Of a stretch of 64,000 nt of DNA, positions 33,359-46,663 are shown one piece after another (position 1 is the first letter of the stretch; each line of letters opens with the position of its first letter). The DNA is from an uncultured Eubacteriales bacterium (GTDB lineage: Bacteria > Bacillota > Clostridia > Oscillospirales > Oscillospiraceae): NCBI GenBank assembly GCA_900545515.1, contig UQZA01000002.1, positions 31,345-95,344 of the forward strand. The letters are read 5' to 3'. The notes under the pieces were generated by a model that was given only the letters and a program-made list of their open reading frames with translations, made no database searches and was not told where the DNA came from. The translations under genes and the position numbers were made by a program.

Positions 33359-34942
33359 TTATTTGCTTTTGTACTGCTGCTCCAGGGAGCCCTGGAGCAG
33401 CGCCATTTGAAGTTCCGCCAGGTTGTTGGGGGCGTCCGGATCACCGTGGCGGGCCGCCCGCAGGGTCCAGTACAGGGCTTTGCCCAAGTCCCGGGCTACG
33501 CCCTGGCCCATCCAATAGAAGTAGCCGACCTGGCATTCTGCCAGAGAATAGCCTTGAAGCGCCAACTCCATGCAGCCATGAAAGCAGGTGACGAAATCGC
33601 CCTTGCAGTAGTGATTTTCAATCAGCTCATTGACCCGGTGCAACTCCGGGCAGTCCTCATAGACCCACGTGGCGGGGGGAACCGGCGCTTGCAACGCTCT
33701 GGCGCCGATGTCGCTTCTGCGGTAGGCGTTGTCGAATTGTACTTCCCCGGCCAAACGGTAGGCCTCTGCAATGGCCTGTTCCAAAGTGTCTGCCACGGCA
33801 GTGGTGCCGGTAACCCGGCCCCCGGAAGTGACCAGTTTCCCATCCACCAGCTTGGCCCCGGCCACGTAGGTGTGAGCGGCGGCCTCCGGCGTCATGGTGA
33901 GGAGAAAGCCCTTTTCATAGGACAGGGGATAACCTCGGGAGGCGTTGATGACGCAGCAGGCGGATTTGTCCGAACACCTCACTTCCGTCTGCGCCAATGT
34001 ACCAAAGGTGGTGGCCTGCATCACGGTCAGAAGGTCAGACTCCAAAAGGGGAAGCACCACCTGGGTCTCCGGGTCGCCAAAGCGGCAGTTGTACTCAATG
34101 ACCTTGGGGCCGTCCCGGGTGAGCATCAGACCAAAATACAGGCAACCGGTGAAAGGCCGTCCCTCTTCTGCCATGGCCCGGACGGTGGGCAGGAAAATTT
34201 CTTCCATACACTGCAGAGCCACCTGGGGGGTGTAGTAGGGATTGGGGGCGACTGTTCCCATGCCCCCGGTGTTGAGGCCCTGATCTCCATCCTGAGCCCG
34301 CTTATGGTCCATGGAGGATACCATAGGCTTTACGGTTTTGCCGTCCGTAAATGCCAGTACGGAAACCTCCGGTCCTTCCAGGAACTCCTCAATGACCACT
34401 GTGGAACCGCTTTTTCCAAATTTGGCATTCGCCATCATATCGGTGACTGCATTCACAGCCTCCTCCCGGGTCTGGCAGATGAGGACGCCCTTCCCCAGGG
34501 CCAGGCCGTCGGCCTTGACCACCAGGGGAAGCGGCTGCGCCTGGACGTAGTCCAGCGCTGCCTGTAAATCAGAGAAGGTCTCATACCGGGCAGTGGGAAT
34601 GTGGTACTTTTTCATCAGGTCCTTGGCAAAGGCCTTGCTGCCCTCAATGACGGCGGCGTTTTGCTTGGGTCCAAAGCAGGGCACCCCAATTTCATTCAGC
34701 CGGTCCACACAGCCCAGGACCAGGGGATCGTCCGGGGTGACCACGGCATAATCCACAGGATGCTCCTTGACAAACTGCACAATGCCGTCCAGGTCCGTAG
34801 CGCCGATGGGCACACAGGTGGCGTCCGCAGAGATACCGCCGTTGCCGGGCAGGGCAAAAATCTCTGTGACGGCAGGGCTTTCTTTTAATTTCTTGATGAT
34901 GGCGTGTTCCCGGCCGCCACCGCCAACCACTAAAATCTTCAT
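33359..34942 (-). CDS. purD: Phosphoribosylamine--glycine ligase with a ~100-aa C-terminal Sel1-like repeat extension
   Basis: PurD ATP-grasp core (MKILVVGGGGREHAI...) through about aa 428. The extension, nt 33359-33658, contains GYFYWMGQGVARDLGKALYWTLRAARHGD. Confidence 0.9.
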   Translation of the reverse strand: MKILVVGGGGREHAIIKKLKESPAVTEIFALPGNGGISADATCVPIGATDLDGIVQFVKEHPVDYAVVTPDDPLVLGCVDRLNEIGVPCFGPKQNAAVIEGSKAFAKDLMKKYHIPTARYETFSDLQAALDYVQAQPLPLVVKADGLALGKGVLICQTREEAVNAVTDMMANAKFGKSGSTVVIEEFLEGPEVSVLAFTDGKTVKPMVSSMDHKRAQDGDQGLNTGGMGTVAPNPYYTPQVALQCMEEIFLPTVRAMAEEGRPFTGCLYFGLMLTRDGPKVIEYNCRFGDPETQVVLPLLESDLLTVMQATTFGTLAQTEVRCSDKSACCVINASRGYPLSYEKGFLLTMTPEAAAHTYVAGAKLVDGKLVTSGGRVTGTTAVADTLEQAIAEAYRLAGEVQFDNAYRRSDIGARALQAPVPPATWVYEDCPELHRVNELIENHYCKGDFVTCFHGCMELALQGYSLAECQVGYFYWMGQGVARDLGKALYWTLRAARHGDPDAPNNLAELQMALLQGSLEQQYKSK

Positions 34943-36147: not shown

Positions 36148-37584
36148 TTATACCCTCAATTCTACGGTTAAATTTTCATTTCCATACTGCTCCAGGAGAG
36201 GCCGTACCACATCCCGGAGGAACTCCGTCACCTGACTGCCGGAGCGGCCGGTGTAGGCCTTGGGGTCCAGCTGCTCCAGGATCTCCGCCTTGGTCAGGGG
36301 GAACATGGGGTCTGCTGCAATGCGGTCAATGAGGTCATTTTGCCCACCCTCCAGCTTTACCCGGGCGGCGGCAGCGTGAGAGTGAACCCGCAGCGCCTCA
36401 TGTAGCTCCTGCCGGTTTCCGCCCCGCTTGACGGATTCCATCATGATGTTTTCCGTGGCCATAAAGGGCAGCTTCTCCATCACCCGGCGCTCTACCACCT
36501 TGTCATTGACCACCAGGCCGGAGGAGACATTCATATAGATGTTCAAAATGGCATCCACCGCCAGGAAGGCCTCCGCCACAGAGATCCGCTTGTTGGCGGA
36601 GTCGTCCAGGGTGCGCTCAAACCACTGGGTTCCGGCGGTGAGGCCGGGGTTCAGACTGTCGCAGATGACATACCGGGCCAGGGCGCAAATGCGTTCGGAC
36701 CGCATGGGGTTGCGCTTATAGGGCATGGCGGAGGAGCCGATCTGGTTCTTTTCAAATGGCTCTTCCATCTCCTCAAAGGACTGCAAAATCCGCAGGTCAT
36801 TGGCAAATTTCATGGCGCTCTGGGCAATGCCGGACAGAGCGCCCAGGAAATAGGCGTCTACCTTCCGGGAATAGGTTTGACCCGACACCGGGACCACCCC
36901 GGCAAAGCCCATGTCCCCGGCAATGAGCCGCTCCATTTCCTTAATTTTCTCCTCGTTTCCTTCGAACAGCTCCATAAAGGAGGCCTGGGTACCGGTGGTC
37001 CCCTTGGAGCCCAGGAGCTTCAGGTTGGACAGCTGATACGCCAGATTTTCCATATCCTGGGTCAGCTCATAGATCCACAGGGTGGCCCGCTTGCCCACGG
37101 TGGTGAGCTGGGCAGGCTGCAGATGGGTATAGCCCAGGCAGGGCTGGTCCCTGTGGGCTTCGGCAAAGGCGGCCAGATTTTTCACCACCTGGGCGCACTT
37201 CTTAAGCGTCAGGCGGCTGGCCTCCCGGAGGATCACCACATCGGTGTTGTCTCCTACATAGCAGCTGGTCGCCCCCAGGTGGATGATCCCCGCCGCCTTG
37301 GGGCACTGCTGCCCATAGGCATAGACGTGGCTCATCACATCGTGACGCACCAAACGCTCCCGCTCCTCGGCCACGGCGTAATTGATGTCGTCCTTATGCG
37401 CTTCCAGCTCTGCGATCTGCTCCTCTGTGATCTCCAGCCCCAGCTGCCGCTCCGCCTTGGCCAACGCGATCCACAGCCGCCGCCAGGTGCGGAATTTAAA
37501 ATTCTCCGAGAAAATATGCTGCATCTCAGCACTGGCATACCGGGTGGACAGAGGAGAAATATAGGCGTCATGATTTCGTTCCAT
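36148..37584 (-). CDS. purB: Adenylosuccinate lyase
   Basis: 478 aa with the fumarate-lyase signature GSSAMPYKRNP. Confidence 0.95.
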   Translation of the reverse strand: MERNHDAYISPLSTRYASAEMQHIFSENFKFRTWRRLWIALAKAERQLGLEITEEQIAELEAHKDDINYAVAEERERLVRHDVMSHVYAYGQQCPKAAGIIHLGATSCYVGDNTDVVILREASRLTLKKCAQVVKNLAAFAEAHRDQPCLGYTHLQPAQLTTVGKRATLWIYELTQDMENLAYQLSNLKLLGSKGTTGTQASFMELFEGNEEKIKEMERLIAGDMGFAGVVPVSGQTYSRKVDAYFLGALSGIAQSAMKFANDLRILQSFEEMEEPFEKNQIGSSAMPYKRNPMRSERICALARYVICDSLNPGLTAGTQWFERTLDDSANKRISVAEAFLAVDAILNIYMNVSSGLVVNDKVVERRVMEKLPFMATENIMMESVKRGGNRQELHEALRVHSHAAAARVKLEGGQNDLIDRIAADPMFPLTKAEILEQLDPKAYTGRSGSQVTEFLRDVVRPLLEQYGNENLTVELRV

Positions 37585-37639: not shown

Positions 37640-38182
37640 CTACTTTCTCATAGGGGCGGACCCATGTGTCCGCCCGTCTCCAGCCTCCATAAGTCCATGC
37701 TTCACGGCCCATCGCAAAGGATTCTCTTGAATATAGGCACCGACTTCCTCAAAGTCCCTCTGGTTCCGAATCACATGGTCATAATATCCCCACTGCCACA
37801 GCCTGTTTGTAAAAGGCGGAAATCCATTTGTTTTCACGCCACGAATATAGGCATTTGTCGTTTGGGTTTTCAACCACTGTATCATTTGAGGTAGGTTGGC
37901 ATTCTCTTCCCGCTCTGGTCCTCGCAAGAGGATATGCACGTGGTCCGGCATCACAACAGATGCAATCAATTGAACCCCTTGAAATTTCTCCTCCAGCTTC
38001 TTGACCCATTGGGCCACCATCTGTCCAGGCGGGCTCGGGCGGACACATGGGTCCGCCCCTACGGACAGAATTTGAACGCTTCCCAAAAGGGGAAGCCGGT
38101 TCTGCGTGCAAAATGTGACAAAATAGACATATGCTCCAGCATAGGCAAAATCGGCAAGGCGCAGATTATGTCGCTGCTGCAT
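37640..38182 (-). CDS. tnpA: IS200/IS605-family HUH tyrosine transposase (REP-associated, RAYT-like)
   Basis: YVYFVTFCTQNRLPLL (first strand), VMPDHVHILL (HUH motif), WQWGYYDHVIRN (catalytic Tyr region). Its start codon overlaps the purO stop (TAATG). Confidence 0.75.
   Translation of the reverse strand: MQQRHNLRLADFAYAGAYVYFVTFCTQNRLPLLGSVQILSVGADPCVRPSPPGQMVAQWVKKLEEKFQGVQLIASVVMPDHVHILLRGPEREENANLPQMIQWLKTQTTNAYIRGVKTNGFPPFTNRLWQWGYYDHVIRNQRDFEEVGAYIQENPLRWAVKHGLMEAGDGRTHGSAPMRK
37654..37675. repeat. REP-like hairpin (8-bp GC stem, 6-nt loop), copy 1
   Basis: GGGCGGAC CCATGT GTCCGCCC. Confidence 0.7.
38042..38063. repeat. REP-like hairpin, copy 2 (inverted copy of copy 1)
   Basis: GGGCGGAC ACATGG GTCCGCCC, lying inside the transposase N-terminal coding region (codes GADPCVRP). 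Confidence 0.7.
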
Positions 38183-38898
38183 TACTGCCCACGATGCCGG
38201 TTTACAATCCGGCTCTCCGTCTCTCCAGTCTCCAGGTTGACAAAGGCCGTATACAGAGAAACCTTGTTATCCTCGTTCAGGCTCTCCCAGATGGCCTGGG
38301 TGAACTGGTCCAGGGTCCCTGTAATGGCCACTGGCCGTGGTTCACCGCAGAAGGAGGGCAAGGGAGCGCCGTCAGATTCATAGGTGTGGATCAGGTGCCC
38401 CATTCCCGCCTTGGGGGCGTCAAAGGTGAAGTAATTTCGGACGCAGCAGCTGGGGTCGCCTTGCAGGGACTTCAGAATGCTGAGAACATAGGAACCGCAG
38501 GGAAACAGAATGCCCGAAATCCTGGGTGTGTAATTGGGGCCGTCGGGCTCAAACTCCCGGGTATTGAGGGCCTCCACATAGCTCTCCCCCTCCAGCATAA
38601 AGTCCCGGAGGGTATCGGTTTGGTCGCCATTGGTCACAATGGTGGTGATGCCATCCTCATCGGCAATTCGGCGGACCGGATGATAGATGATGAGGGAAGG
38701 GTCTGTCATTTTGGCCGGGTCAAAGGCCTGGGTCCGGATGCCGTCTTCGGTCTCCACAAAGATTCGGTTCCGGCTGTTTTCGCTGCGTCCCATAATAAAG
38801 TAAGCGATGACGGCGGACTTTCCGTCTTCGCTCCGGCCCAGAAGAACGCCGCGGCCGGGATATGCATTGCCCTTTAGGAGGGCGGACAGATCATACAT
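38182..38898 (-). CDS. purO: IMP cyclohydrolase, archaeal PurO-like type
   Basis: YPGRGVLLGRSEDGKSAVIAYFIMGRSENSRNR...DPSLIIYHP...TNGDQTDT...NYTPRISG matches the PurO pattern. It complements the AICARFT-only PurH. Confidence 0.75.
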   Translation of the reverse strand: MYDLSALLKGNAYPGRGVLLGRSEDGKSAVIAYFIMGRSENSRNRIFVETEDGIRTQAFDPAKMTDPSLIIYHPVRRIADEDGITTIVTNGDQTDTLRDFMLEGESYVEALNTREFEPDGPNYTPRISGILFPCGSYVLSILKSLQGDPSCCVRNYFTFDAPKAGMGHLIHTYESDGAPLPSFCGEPRPVAITGTLDQFTQAIWESLNEDNKVSLYTAFVNLETGETESRIVNRHRGQ

Positions 38899-42046: not shown

Positions 42047-43468
42047 TTATTCCTGCCCGGTCCAGCAATAGGTGCAGACCTTTTCCCGGTCCAGGCCAAT
42101 GGCCTCCAGCAGCCCGTCCAGGGACTGGTAGCCCAGGGAGTGGAAGCCCATCTCTTCACAGATGGATTTCAGGAGGCACTGGCCCCGCTCTGTCCGGCCG
42201 TCAGCGTATTCCTCCAGGTGCTGCTGCCCTTCATCGCCCTCCAGCTTCTGGACCATCCGACGGGCCAAAAGCTCCATGTCGGAGTTACTGGAGGAAAAGT
42301 TCAGGTATTTGCAGCCGTACATAATGGGCGGGCAGGCGGACCGCATATGCACCTCTTTGGCGCCGCTCTCGTATAAAAACTCCACGGTTTCCCGCAGCTG
42401 AGTCCCACGGACAATGGAATCGTCCACAAACAGCAGCTTCTTGTCCTGGATCAGCTCCGGTACGGGAATCTGTTTCATTTTGGCTACCTGGTTCCGGACC
42501 TCCTGATTGGAGGGCATGAAGGACCGGGGCCAGGTGGGGGTGTATTTCACAAAGGGCCGGGCAAAGGGCTTCTGGCACTGGTTGGAGTAACCAATGGCAT
42601 GAGGTAGGCCAGAATCCGGTACACCGGCAATATAGTCTACCTCTGGCAGAGTCCCCCGCTCCATTTCATCCCGGGCCATAATCTGGCCGTTGCGGTAACG
42701 CATGACCTCTACGTTTTTCCCCTCGTAGTTGGAGTTGGGATAGCCGTAGTAGGTCCACAGGAAGGCGCAGATTTTCATTTTTTCCCCGGGAGCTAACAGC
42801 TGCTGGATCCCATCCGGCGTCACCCGGACAATCTCTCCGGGGCCCAGCTCATAGTGGTCGGCATAGCCCAGCTTGTGATAGGCAAAGGACTCGAAGGATA
42901 CGCAACAGCCCTCCTCATTTTTGCCTACCAGGATGGGCAGACGGCCCATCCTGTCCCGGGCGGCCAGGATGCCGTCTGGCAGCAGGAGCAGAATGGTGGC
43001 TGAGCCGTCAATCAGCTCCTGGGCGTGGCAAATGCCCTCTACCAGAGTTTCCTTTTGACTGATGAGCGCTGCCACCAGCTCCGTCTGGTTTACCTTGCCA
43101 TTGCTCATGGCCATGAACTGATGGCCGTGATCGGAGAAGCAGGTGTCTACCAGAGCCTCGGCATTGTTGATGATTCCCACAAAGGCAATGGCGTACAGGC
43201 CAAGGTGGGACCGGACCAGCAGGGGCTGGGGGTCTGTGTCGCTGATGCAGCCAATGCCGCTGCAACCCTGGAAGGAGGCCATATCCTTCTCAAATTTGGT
43301 GCGGAAGGGGGTGTTTTCAATGTTGTGAATCTGCCGCTGAAACCCCCGGTTTTGGTCATAGATCACCATACCGCCCCGGCGGGTGCCCAGGTGAGAGTGA
43401 TAGTCGGCGCCAAAGAAAATATCGAGCACGCAGTCCCGCCGGGAGACTGCTCCAAAAAATCCTCCCAA
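42047..43468 (-). CDS. PurF-like paralog (class II amidotransferase + PRTase) lacking the N-terminal nucleophile cysteine
   Basis: 473 aa. The N-terminus MGGFFGAV aligns to PurF MCGIFG with Cys1 replaced by Gly. A PRTase loop [12 protein letters not shown] is present. Confidence 0.7.
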   Translation of the reverse strand: MGGFFGAVSRRDCVLDIFFGADYHSHLGTRRGGMVIYDQNRGFQRQIHNIENTPFRTKFEKDMASFQGCSGIGCISDTDPQPLLVRSHLGLYAIAFVGIINNAEALVDTCFSDHGHQFMAMSNGKVNQTELVAALISQKETLVEGICHAQELIDGSATILLLLPDGILAARDRMGRLPILVGKNEEGCCVSFESFAYHKLGYADHYELGPGEIVRVTPDGIQQLLAPGEKMKICAFLWTYYGYPNSNYEGKNVEVMRYRNGQIMARDEMERGTLPEVDYIAGVPDSGLPHAIGYSNQCQKPFARPFVKYTPTWPRSFMPSNQEVRNQVAKMKQIPVPELIQDKKLLFVDDSIVRGTQLRETVEFLYESGAKEVHMRSACPPIMYGCKYLNFSSSNSDMELLARRMVQKLEGDEGQQHLEEYADGRTERGQCLLKSICEEMGFHSLGYQSLDGLLEAIGLDREKVCTYCWTGQE

Positions 43469-44715: not shown

Positions 44716-44835
44716 CAAAATGAAAAAGGGCACACTTACCGCCTGCAGTAAGTGTGCCCAGACGGCCGGCAAGAAATCCAGACGCCCTGCTCCCCCGTGG
44801 TGCTCCACTTCTTCCGTCAGTTACAGGGCGTCAGC
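44716..44835 (-). ncRNA. ZTP riboswitch (pfl motif) with intrinsic terminator as expression platform, leader of the pur operon
   Basis: Minus-strand read: CUGUAACUGACGGAAG...GUGGAGCACCACGGGGGAGC...CCGGCCGUCUGGGCA. Consensus is GACUGGCG...GUGGGAAACCACCGGGGAGC...CCGGCCGCCUGGGCA. It is followed by the 12-bp hairpin GGGCACACUUAC-UGCAGGCG-GUAAGUGUGCCC, then UUUUU, then AAGGAGG and ATG(purE). Confidence 0.75.
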
Positions 44836-46540: not shown

Positions 46541-46663
46541 ACTGGCTGCCTCCTTAAAAGCAAGGCTGTCTCAAAACAAAGTTTTGGGACAGCCCCACAT
46601 CATTTCAGCTTGTGACGGTTTGATTTCACTTCAGGCGAGCCTGGGTGCATCAGAATTGGGTGA

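Follow-up and report, generated by a model that had tools for sequence, protein, structure and literature searches.

Genomic context and gene identity

At the locus examined here, a gene for a presumed DNA-cutting enzyme lies inside a purine biosynthesis operon and carries, inside its own coding sequence, two inverted copies of a perfect hairpin. The stretch analysed (hereafter the window) comprises 64,000 nucleotides of contig UQZA01000002.1 (positions 31,345 to 95,344; assembly GCA_900545515.1) from an uncultured bacterium of the Oscillospiraceae ("Firmicutes bacterium CAG:137"). All positions are given in the numbering of this 64-kb window, and the gene and its neighbouring pur genes all lie on the minus strand. 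The gene, located between purO and purB, very probably encodes a repetitive extragenic palindromic (REP)-associated tyrosine transposase (RAYT, or TnpA_REP) with the general mechanism of that family, most like subclass 2.4 (= RAYT group 4) in REP type and in-frame REPs. The gene and the diagnostic segments of its product are as follows.

37640 to 38182, minus strand, stop codon included: RAYT/TnpA_REP gene, 180 aa (open reading frame (ORF) list, profiles and fold)
37934 to 37942, minus strand: HUH motif H81-V-H83 within VMPDHVHILL; H81 invariant and H83 present in 29/30 sequences of alignment A1; strand 81-87 of the structural model
37763 to 37798, minus strand: W129-Q-W-G-Y-Y-D-H-V-I-R139-N motif, counterpart of the GTAG-contact region of E. 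coli TnpA_REP; W129-Q130 conserved
37718 to 37735, minus strand: tyrosine motif Y150-I-Q-E-N154-P155, the class 2 (TnpA_REP) signature Y---NP, conserved in 29/30 sequences of A1

The protein matched Pfam Y1_Tnp (PF01797) at 3e-9 and scored 74.0 bits against the NCBIfam model REP_Tyr_transpos (NF047646), versus 27.9 bits against the NCBIfam IS200 transposase model (NF033573), whose cutoff of 55 was not reached. A profile built from 30 homologues (alignment A1) retrieved E. coli TnpA_REP (4ER8, chain 4er8_A; hmmsearch E 8e-9) as the best solved relative, with ISDra2, IS608 and IS200 behind. The same chain was the top Foldseek hit of an AlphaFold model of the protein (predicted local distance difference test, pLDDT, 81), with an E value of 6.7e-8 and a root-mean-square deviation of 2.9 Å, compared with approximately 8 Å for IS608 and ISDra2. 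In E. coli TnpA_REP, the residues W94, Q95, E100, H101, and R104 contact the GTAG tetranucleotide, and the Y-x3-NP signature separates class 2 (TnpA_REP) from the Y-x3-Q of IS200 (Quentin et al. 2018, BMC Genomics 19:475, PMC6006769). The profile scores, 4ER8 as best relative, and the HUH, WQ, and Y-x3-NP motifs thus identify the protein as a RAYT, not an IS200 transposase. A preliminary description of this DNA, made from the letters alone, had already proposed a RAYT-type Y1/HUH transposase on the strength of the strings VMPDHVHILL and YYDHVI; both strings are indeed in the protein, and the proposal agrees with the profile, sequence, and fold comparisons.

Several observations weigh against this assignment. 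The REP_Tyr_transpos score lies slightly under the curated cutoff of 80, although it remains clearly better than the IS200 match. Compared with the subclass 2.4 motifs (NH[IFV]H, WQ, YIxNNP), the window protein shares WQ but deviates in the HUH motif (DHVH) and the tyrosine motif (YIQENP). Moreover, no REP was found upstream of the gene, unlike the canonical REPtron, and no further copy of the hairpin was detected in the 64-kb window with up to three mismatches. Within A1, N occupies the first HUH-motif position in 9/30 sequences, and NNP occurs in several. Taken alone, the motifs of the window protein would also be compatible with subclass 2.7 ([ND]HVH, WQ).

Two REPs translated within the gene

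The 22-mer GGGCGGACCCATGTGTCCGCCC occurs exactly at 37654-37675 (plus strand) and 38037-38058 (minus strand) and nowhere else in the window; dinucleotide-preserving shuffles yielded 0.00 matches even when up to three mismatches were allowed. The sequence shared exactly by the inverted pair is in fact 26 nt long (TAGGGGCGGACCCATGTGTCCGCCCG). The two copies, together with a third position relevant to the comparison with homologues, are as follows.

38037 to 38062, minus strand: intragenic REP at site S1, GTAG followed by GGGCGGAC-CCATGT-GTCCGCCC, read in frame as V41-G-A-D-P-C-V-R-P49
37650 to 37675, plus strand: 3' REP, ATAG followed by the identical hairpin in opposite orientation, read on the coding strand as G170-R-T-H-G-S-A-P177
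37889 to 37921, minus strand: site S2, after the HUH motif, empty in the window (by-eye comparison with L211 and L212, two relatives from a gyrase locus)

At S1, the coding-strand letters are GTA GGG GCG GAC CCA TGT GTC CGC CCG, which display the anatomy of a REP, namely a GTAG head immediately 5' of a perfectly paired G+C stem of 8 bp that closes a loop of 6 nt, with an RNA folding energy of -19.2 kcal/mol. In the AlphaFold model, a small beta-hairpin immediately precedes helix alphaA (the beta1/alphaA loop), and the encoded peptide is its second strand, with a lowered pLDDT of approximately 66-74. The 3' REP folds as an RNA hairpin of -17.4 kcal/mol, and the C-terminal tail that contains it (residues 169-180) is disordered in the model; its head reads ATAG in the window and GTAG in the other common haplotypes (T178). 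The segment at S2 is possibly a decayed reverse REP (...GCCAACCTACC versus GCGCCCCTACC in relatives), the resemblance being weak, with 12/26 positions matching without gaps. The layout of the window gene is therefore described as a variant of the S1+S2 arrangement, in which S1 is intact, S2 is empty, and the reverse copy lies in the C-terminal tail.

The preliminary description had reported both exact inverted 22-nt hairpins inside the ORF and had placed the downstream one within the last 12 codons, in agreement with its location at codons 170-177 of 180 (GRTHGSAP). Its placement of the upstream hairpin at codons 40-47 was mistaken, as the hairpin covers codons 42-49 (GADPCVRP), or 41-49 with the GTAG head. 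Similarly, it correctly read GADPCVRP as a translated hairpin but counted one translated copy, whereas both are translated, and it gave the right protein length of 180 aa but an end of the ORF at 38190 instead of 38182, without saying which strand the ORF is on.

Intragenic REPs across homologous genes

The alignment of database homologues revealed VGADPCVRP at the matching position in sequences only 40-50% identical, and the peptide was missing from more distant homologues. The question raised earlier, whether residues 36-52 form an insertion, can accordingly be answered with yes in kind, the insertion being a translated GTAG-headed REP that is absent in distant homologues and present in closer ones. 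The variants found at S1 (VGAHLCVRP, VGADRRVCP, VGADPCVGP, VGVDPCVDP, and VGNGLCAVP) change in pairs (A with R, C or G; V with D; N-G with A-V), and these are the pairs that preserve complementarity of the DNA stem. As the peptide changes are compensatory stem changes, the constraint at this site acts on DNA, not on protein. In many homologues, G-x-H-x-G-x-P-(L/T), the reverse-strand reading of the hairpin, directly follows the HUH motif.

A set of 80 homologous loci from metagenomes was searched for GT[AG]G-headed hairpins, and 75 genes were analysed. The hairpin finder demands pairing and cannot itself prove it; the independent evidence consists of the exact recurrence of the hairpin elsewhere and of the covariation in sequences chosen by homology. 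Intragenic GTAG hairpins were detected in 63/75 genes, with a density of 2.79 per kb within genes versus 0.18 per kb more than 300 nt away. A doublet at S2, after the HUH motif, was found in 28 of the 75 genes, a forward copy at S1 (beta1/alphaA loop) combined with a reverse copy at S2 in 18, and a single S2 copy in 16 (11 reverse and 5 forward), while one gene had another arrangement and 12 had none. S2 is occupied by a REP in 44/75 homologues, and also in L211 and L212. Forward copies lie in the V-G-x frame in 19/20 cases at S1 and in most cases at S2, and reverse copies are read in two frames. In addition, the two copies within a gene differ by at most 2 nt in 17/18 S1+S2 genes, compared with a median of 7 nt between genes.

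REP type and its distribution

Subclass 2.4 of TnpA_REP, equivalent to group 4 in the RAYT classification by Bertels et al. 2017 (GBE 9:2110), is known from Cyanobacteria, Bacteroidetes, and scattered phyla; three G-C pairs close the base of the stem in its "canonical long" REPs, and in-frame REPs within the tnpA_REP gene are a unique feature of this subclass (Quentin et al. 2018). Table S1 of that study lists the subclass 2.4 REPs GTAGGGGCGGACCTATGTGTCCGCCC of Nitrosococcus oceani and GTAGGGGCGGACCCGCGTGTCCGCCC of Desulfomonile tiedjei. The REP of the window (GTAG|GGGCGGAC|CCATGT|GTCCGCCC) has the stem of these entries, and the loop alone differs. Furthermore, an earlier catalogue of GTAG REPs includes copies lying in frame within genes and copies that extend over the 5' or 3' end of RAYT genes ("5'ov", "3'ov"); it also covers REP insertions in numerous unrelated genes, regarded as neutral (Di Nocera et al. 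2013, BMC Genomics 14:522, PMC3733652). The central oddity of this locus, REPs translated inside a gene, was already known, since both studies describe in-frame intragenic REPs, and the feature is less unusual than first thought, since the 2018 study reports it for the subgroup in question.

A scan for TAGGGGCGGAC-N6-GTCCGCCC, in which each species was represented by one genome, returned at least 120 stretches, and the following statements refer to the matches listed. They came from Acidobacteriota, Desulfobacterota, Chloroflexota, Cyanobacteria, Bacteroidota, Planctomycetota, and Nitrospirota, and also from Gammaproteobacteria, a candidate-phyla-radiation (CPR) bacterium, and many Oscillospiraceae. 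The species of the window was absent among these stretches, and dispersed copies were present in related Oscillospiraceae genomes. The base before TAG was G in nearly all of them, giving GTAG, and the loop was mostly C-Y-R-Y-G-T. About a third had an inverted, slightly different partner within a few tens of bases, like the doublets known as REPINs or bacterial interspersed mosaic elements (BIMEs). Because a RAYT ORF was encoded in just 2/120 stretches, the hairpins are dispersed stand-alone elements, and on the same count the idea that each hairpin marks a copy of the transposase gene was dropped.

Two further observations concern these dispersed copies. In distant phyla they are often arranged as doublets that pair two subtypes, with the stem GCGGAC in forward and GCGCAC, GCAGAC, or GCGAAC in reverse orientation (L008, L017, L018, L023, L034, L042, L052, L072, L079, L084, and others), an arrangement reminiscent of E. 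coli BIMEs with their paired Y and Z REPs. Identical 26-mers are common to Geobacter, Bacteroidota, Coxiellaceae, Gemmatimonadales, and the Oscillospiraceae bacterium of the window. In the literature, a search for the 8-mer GTAGGGGC returned unrelated primer sequences only, and a search for RAYTs in Clostridia or beside gyrase returned nothing specific.

Comparison with known systems

The closest described systems are the subclass 2.4 REPtrons, with which the locus shares the WQ motif, the Y-x3-NP signature, canonical long GTAG REPs, in-frame REPs inside the gene, and an occurrence in scattered phyla. It differs from them in the placement of its copies, one ahead of the HUH motif and the other within the C-terminal tail with S2 empty, in the lack of an upstream REP, in the motifs noted above (DHVH and YIQENP instead of NH[IFV]H and YIxNNP), and in its setting, a biosynthetic operon of a gut member of the Clostridia. 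E. coli TnpA_REP (YafM; 4ER8; subclass 2.2; Messing et al. 2012; Ton-Hoang et al. 2012; Corneloup et al. 2021), the best solved relative by both sequence and fold, has in common with it a monomeric-type Y1/HUH core, inverted GTAG-headed REPs, and counterparts of the GTAG-contacting residues (W, Q, E/D, H, R). The E. coli REPs, in contrast, are imperfect, bulged palindromes outside the gene, present in hundreds per genome, and the enzyme has the motifs DHLH, WE, and YIHYNP, whereas the palindrome of the window is perfect (8-bp stem, 6-nt loop) and its copies lie inside the ORF.

In-frame palindromes tolerated in loops or termini are also known from intragenic GTAG/CGTC REPs and from Rickettsia palindromic elements (Di Nocera et al. 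2013). In those cases the hosts are mostly unrelated genes (uvrA, uvrB, recB), whereas the host gene in the window encodes the transposase that, by analogy, would recognize the repeat. IS200/IS605 insertion sequences (ISs) such as IS608 and ISDra2 share the HUH/Y1 fold, the recognition of single-stranded hairpins, and a tetranucleotide "guide" 5' of the hairpin; the window system differs by having N instead of Q in the tyrosine motif, a fixed place, hairpins that do not bound a self-sufficient unit, and no tnpB. Taken with the published cases, what the locus adds is modestly new: the combination of an S1 REP with a C-terminal REP, the lack of an upstream REP, the embedding in pur and gyr loci, the turnover of alleles at one junction, and the Arg-to-Trp haplotypes, the last three of which are described below.

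Operon setting and expected expression

The features that define the setting of the gene are as follows.

38182 to 38898, minus strand: purO-like IMP cyclohydrolase gene, 238 aa (PF07826, 7e-59; named IMP cyclohydrolase by NCBI)
38180 to 38184, minus strand: TAATG, in which the purO stop and the RAYT start share one base (direct sequence reading)
36148 to 37584, minus strand: purB, adenylosuccinate lyase, 478 aa (TIGR00928, 386 bits, above cutoff)
44749 to 44834, minus strand: ZMP/ZTP riboswitch at the operon head (Rfam RF01750, 67.4 bits versus a gathering score of 39)

The purO/RAYT junction reads ...GGG CAG TAATG CAG..., the last A of the purO TAA being the first base of the RAYT ATG, and 55 nt separate the RAYT stop from the purB start (37584, minus strand). 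Direct reading of the sequence thus reproduces the earlier account of a gene between purO and purB on one strand with a TAATG overlap. A terminator-like stem at 44759-44728 forms the expression platform of the riboswitch, directly followed by purE and purC, and the operon continues with a PurF paralogue, purF, purM, purN, purO, RAYT, purB, an AICARFT-only purH, purD, and purL.

No terminator-like site was found by the scan between purO and purB; the regional total of such sites was no higher than in shuffles. The 3' hairpin was considered as an intrinsic terminator and ruled out, as no T-run follows it and the terminator scan of the purO-purB interval was empty. With no terminator-like site in this interval and a gap of 55 nt to purB, the RAYT is very likely co-transcribed with purO and purB. 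The preliminary description had called the element "domesticated or at least co-transcribed"; the second half of this statement is very likely in view of the layout, and the first is a conjecture, the two commonest haplotypes carrying Arg-to-Trp changes at conserved positions (see below). With the riboswitch at the head of the entire purE...purL operon, expression of the RAYT would be under ZTP control. A separate observation is a sigma-70-like match (TTGAAA-18-TATATT, 10/12) at 37844-37873 on the minus strand, within the RAYT ORF upstream of purB, which is a consensus match only.

Turnover of the RAYT at the purO|purB junction and its relatives at gyr loci

Comparison with related loci revealed that the junction has been occupied by different RAYTs. 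In L125 (4630-4830), whose flanks are 82-85% identical to the window, purO is followed by purB after 42 nt, and the site is empty of a RAYT. In L128 (1-1390), the flanks are 94.5-94.8% identical, yet the RAYT at the matching junction (P0004) is only 52% identical. This second occupant (allele B) has the same layout as in the window, with a TAAT-ATG junction, an S1 REP (GTAGGGGCGCACCTATGTGTGCGCCC), and a reverse REP whose loop contains the stop codon of the gene and which directly adjoins ancestral intergenic sequence. A third occupant (P0003, approximately 53% identical; allele C) was found in L209 (540-1211; purO flank 81% identical), where it directly follows purO via TAAATG, and no purB sequence is reached before the end of the contig. 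This third gene has a degenerate REP at S1 and a forward REP 45 nt beyond its stop. The three occupants are equidistant from one another (52-55%), and one of them is equally close (53%) to a relative from a gyr locus.

The gyr-locus relatives, L211 (1975-2891) and L212 (1545-2461), encode RAYTs 45-47% identical to that of the window, situated between gyrB plus a small ORF on one side and gyrA on the other. The small ORF encodes 124-140 aa, is unannotated, and has no Pfam match. These RAYT genes abut or overlap their neighbours, with a 2-nt gap in L211 and a 4-nt overlap in L212, and they have intragenic REPs only, forward at S1 and reverse at S2, which form exact inverted 26-mers in L211. No REP was found upstream of the junction RAYTs (window, L128, and L209) or of the gyr-locus RAYTs, and the unit that moved was therefore not REP-bounded. 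Moreover, the divergence of the RAYTs is out of step with that of their flanks, which points to replacement or repeated acquisition of the RAYT at the one purO|purB junction.

Population distribution and haplotypes

The exact RAYT protein was indexed in 1772 sample blocks, and the identical pur context was observed in 24/24 long contigs read as well as in 24/24 contigs chosen via purB. The RAYT is fixed at the purO|purB locus in the species of the window, a very common gut bacterium. Among seven such contigs, five sites within the gene were variable (one synonymous and four non-synonymous), and the REP stems were invariant; the diversity value for purN was disregarded because one contig has an indel there. 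The codons that distinguish the haplotypes are as follows.

37790 to 37792, minus strand: codon 131
37766 to 37768, minus strand: codon 139
37649 to 37651, minus strand: codon 178, at which M178T switches the 3' REP head between ATAG and GTAG

Haplotype 1, the form in the window (848 contigs), combines R131W with a change of the 3' REP head from GTAG to ATAG; haplotype 2 (215 contigs) has R139W, and haplotype 3 (155 contigs) is consensus-like. In A1, R is conserved at position 131 in 26/30 and at position 139 in 28/30 sequences, and R139 aligns with R104 of E. coli TnpA_REP, one of the GTAG contacts; mutations of GTAG are not tolerated by the E. coli enzyme. Frameshifted forms of the RAYT occur in a few assemblies, where sequencing errors are possible. 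Together, R131W, R139W, the ATAG head, the four non-synonymous changes against one synonymous, and the frameshifts suggest that catalysis is under relaxed constraint. The system in the species of the window is probably a fixed passenger sliding towards inactivity and not a busy spreader of REPs. A point against this view is that the reading frame is open in well over a thousand contigs, which implies some constraint and fits poorly with simple decay.

Proposed mode of action and alternative explanations

The following mode of action would account for the locus. Lacking a promoter and terminator of its own, as its context suggests, the RAYT would be transcribed with the pur operon under the ZTP riboswitch, and its translation would be coupled to termination at purO. 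By homology with E. coli TnpA_REP (Messing et al. 2012; Corneloup et al. 2021), the protein is predicted to bind the folded REP on single-stranded DNA, to read the GTAG head via the WQ...IRN region, and to cut and rejoin DNA by means of Tyr150 and an HUH-bound metal. The family pattern further suggests that the internal REPs may be mobile REP or REPIN copies that landed in surface loops tolerating approximately 9 extra residues, and that gene conversion or the enzyme itself may maintain their similarity.

An ordinary and potentially active IS200/IS605-type element that landed in the pur operon by chance, with the two hairpins as its subterminal ends, would explain the fold shared with the IS608 and ISDra2 transposases, the bracketing of the protein by inverted hairpins, and the empty junction in a related lineage. 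This explanation is nevertheless very improbable. N154 stands in the Y-x3-N-P motif where IS200 has Q, the IS200 profile reaches 28 bits against a cutoff of 55, tnpB is lacking, and the left hairpin lies 120 nt inside the ORF (codons 41-49), so that a hairpin-bounded unit would lose the start codon and strand beta1. The single location in 24/24 long contigs, with the protein in 1772 sample blocks, and the occurrence of the hairpin alone at many intergenic sites of other genomes with no transposase nearby are likewise difficult to reconcile with it. An active IS200/IS605 element was accordingly rejected on motif, profile score, fixed location, and hairpin geometry. It is scarcely credible, moreover, that VGADPCVRP and GRTHGSAP are motifs selected at the amino-acid level with the DNA palindrome as a by-product. 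The recurrence of the peptide at one position in homologues 40-50% identical and its place in a modelled beta-hairpin would fit such a role, but the 26-nt sequence occurs at more than 150 sites outside RAYT genes in many phyla among the matches listed, another part of the same protein is encoded by the identical DNA in reverse orientation, model confidence is lowest in exactly these stretches, and the residue covariation (A/R, A/C, V/D, NG/AV) is sensible only as base pairs. Protein-level conservation of VGADPCVRP was rejected on the non-coding copies and the base-pair covariation.

A functional role of the internal REPs, be it autoregulation via the gene or its mRNA, a protected master copy for genomic REPs, or modulation of purB, is unlikely, although a number of observations speak for it. 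Forward copies occupy two conserved loops, almost always in frame 0 at S1 and mostly so at S2; copies are near-identical within a gene and different between genes; the stems are invariant among strains while the protein varies; the RNA hairpins are stable and lie just upstream of purB; and the gyrB-gyrA relatives have internal REPs only. Against this, 12/75 homologues have no intragenic REP, S2 is empty in the window, and S1 is degenerate in allele C, and the copies are therefore dispensable; the two frames of the reverse copies suggest repeated or independent events, and the REP insertions known from numerous unrelated genes are regarded as neutral (Di Nocera et al. 2013). Quite doubtful, too, is a still more far-reaching proposal, according to which the recognition hairpins would be an obligatory, co-evolving part of the gene (a master REPIN or an autoregulatory target), and such genes would be promoter-less cassettes in essential operons (pur under the ZTP riboswitch, gyrB-gyrA), with whole alleles exchanged between near-identical genomes at one set junction by a route other than REP-bounded transposition. 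The preferred reading remains a RAYT with REPs translated in its loops and tail.

The locus leaves the current picture of RAYTs unchanged. Among bacterial transposases maintained as single-copy residents, RAYTs have been studied best, and the spread of REPs is still unsolved. The locus offers a well-sampled natural example, with an empty site, three divergent occupants, and haplotypes in which the presumed GTAG-reading motif and the GTAG head itself are altered, and it is a convenient setting in which to ask if internal REPs are of consequence and if selection still acts on the enzyme. Under the ZTP riboswitch, an enzyme that, by analogy with its relatives, would cut DNA would be made when the folate or purine supply falls.

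Other features of the pur region

Three further features were observed in the surroundings of the gene. In an unusual fusion, the product of purD (GAR synthetase; 33359-34942, minus strand) has a C-terminal extension of approximately 100 aa that contains a Sel1 repeat (PF08238, 1e-7). Directly upstream of the canonical purF lies a second PurF-like gene (42047-43468, minus strand; 473 aa), which is divergent and has only weak matches to GATase_7 and phosphoribosyltransferase (PRTase) domains. At 46564-46598 (minus strand), a GTGG-headed hairpin with an 11-bp stem (GTGGGGCTGTCCCAAAACTTTGTTTTGAGACAGCC) bears no relation to the REP and is possibly a terminator.

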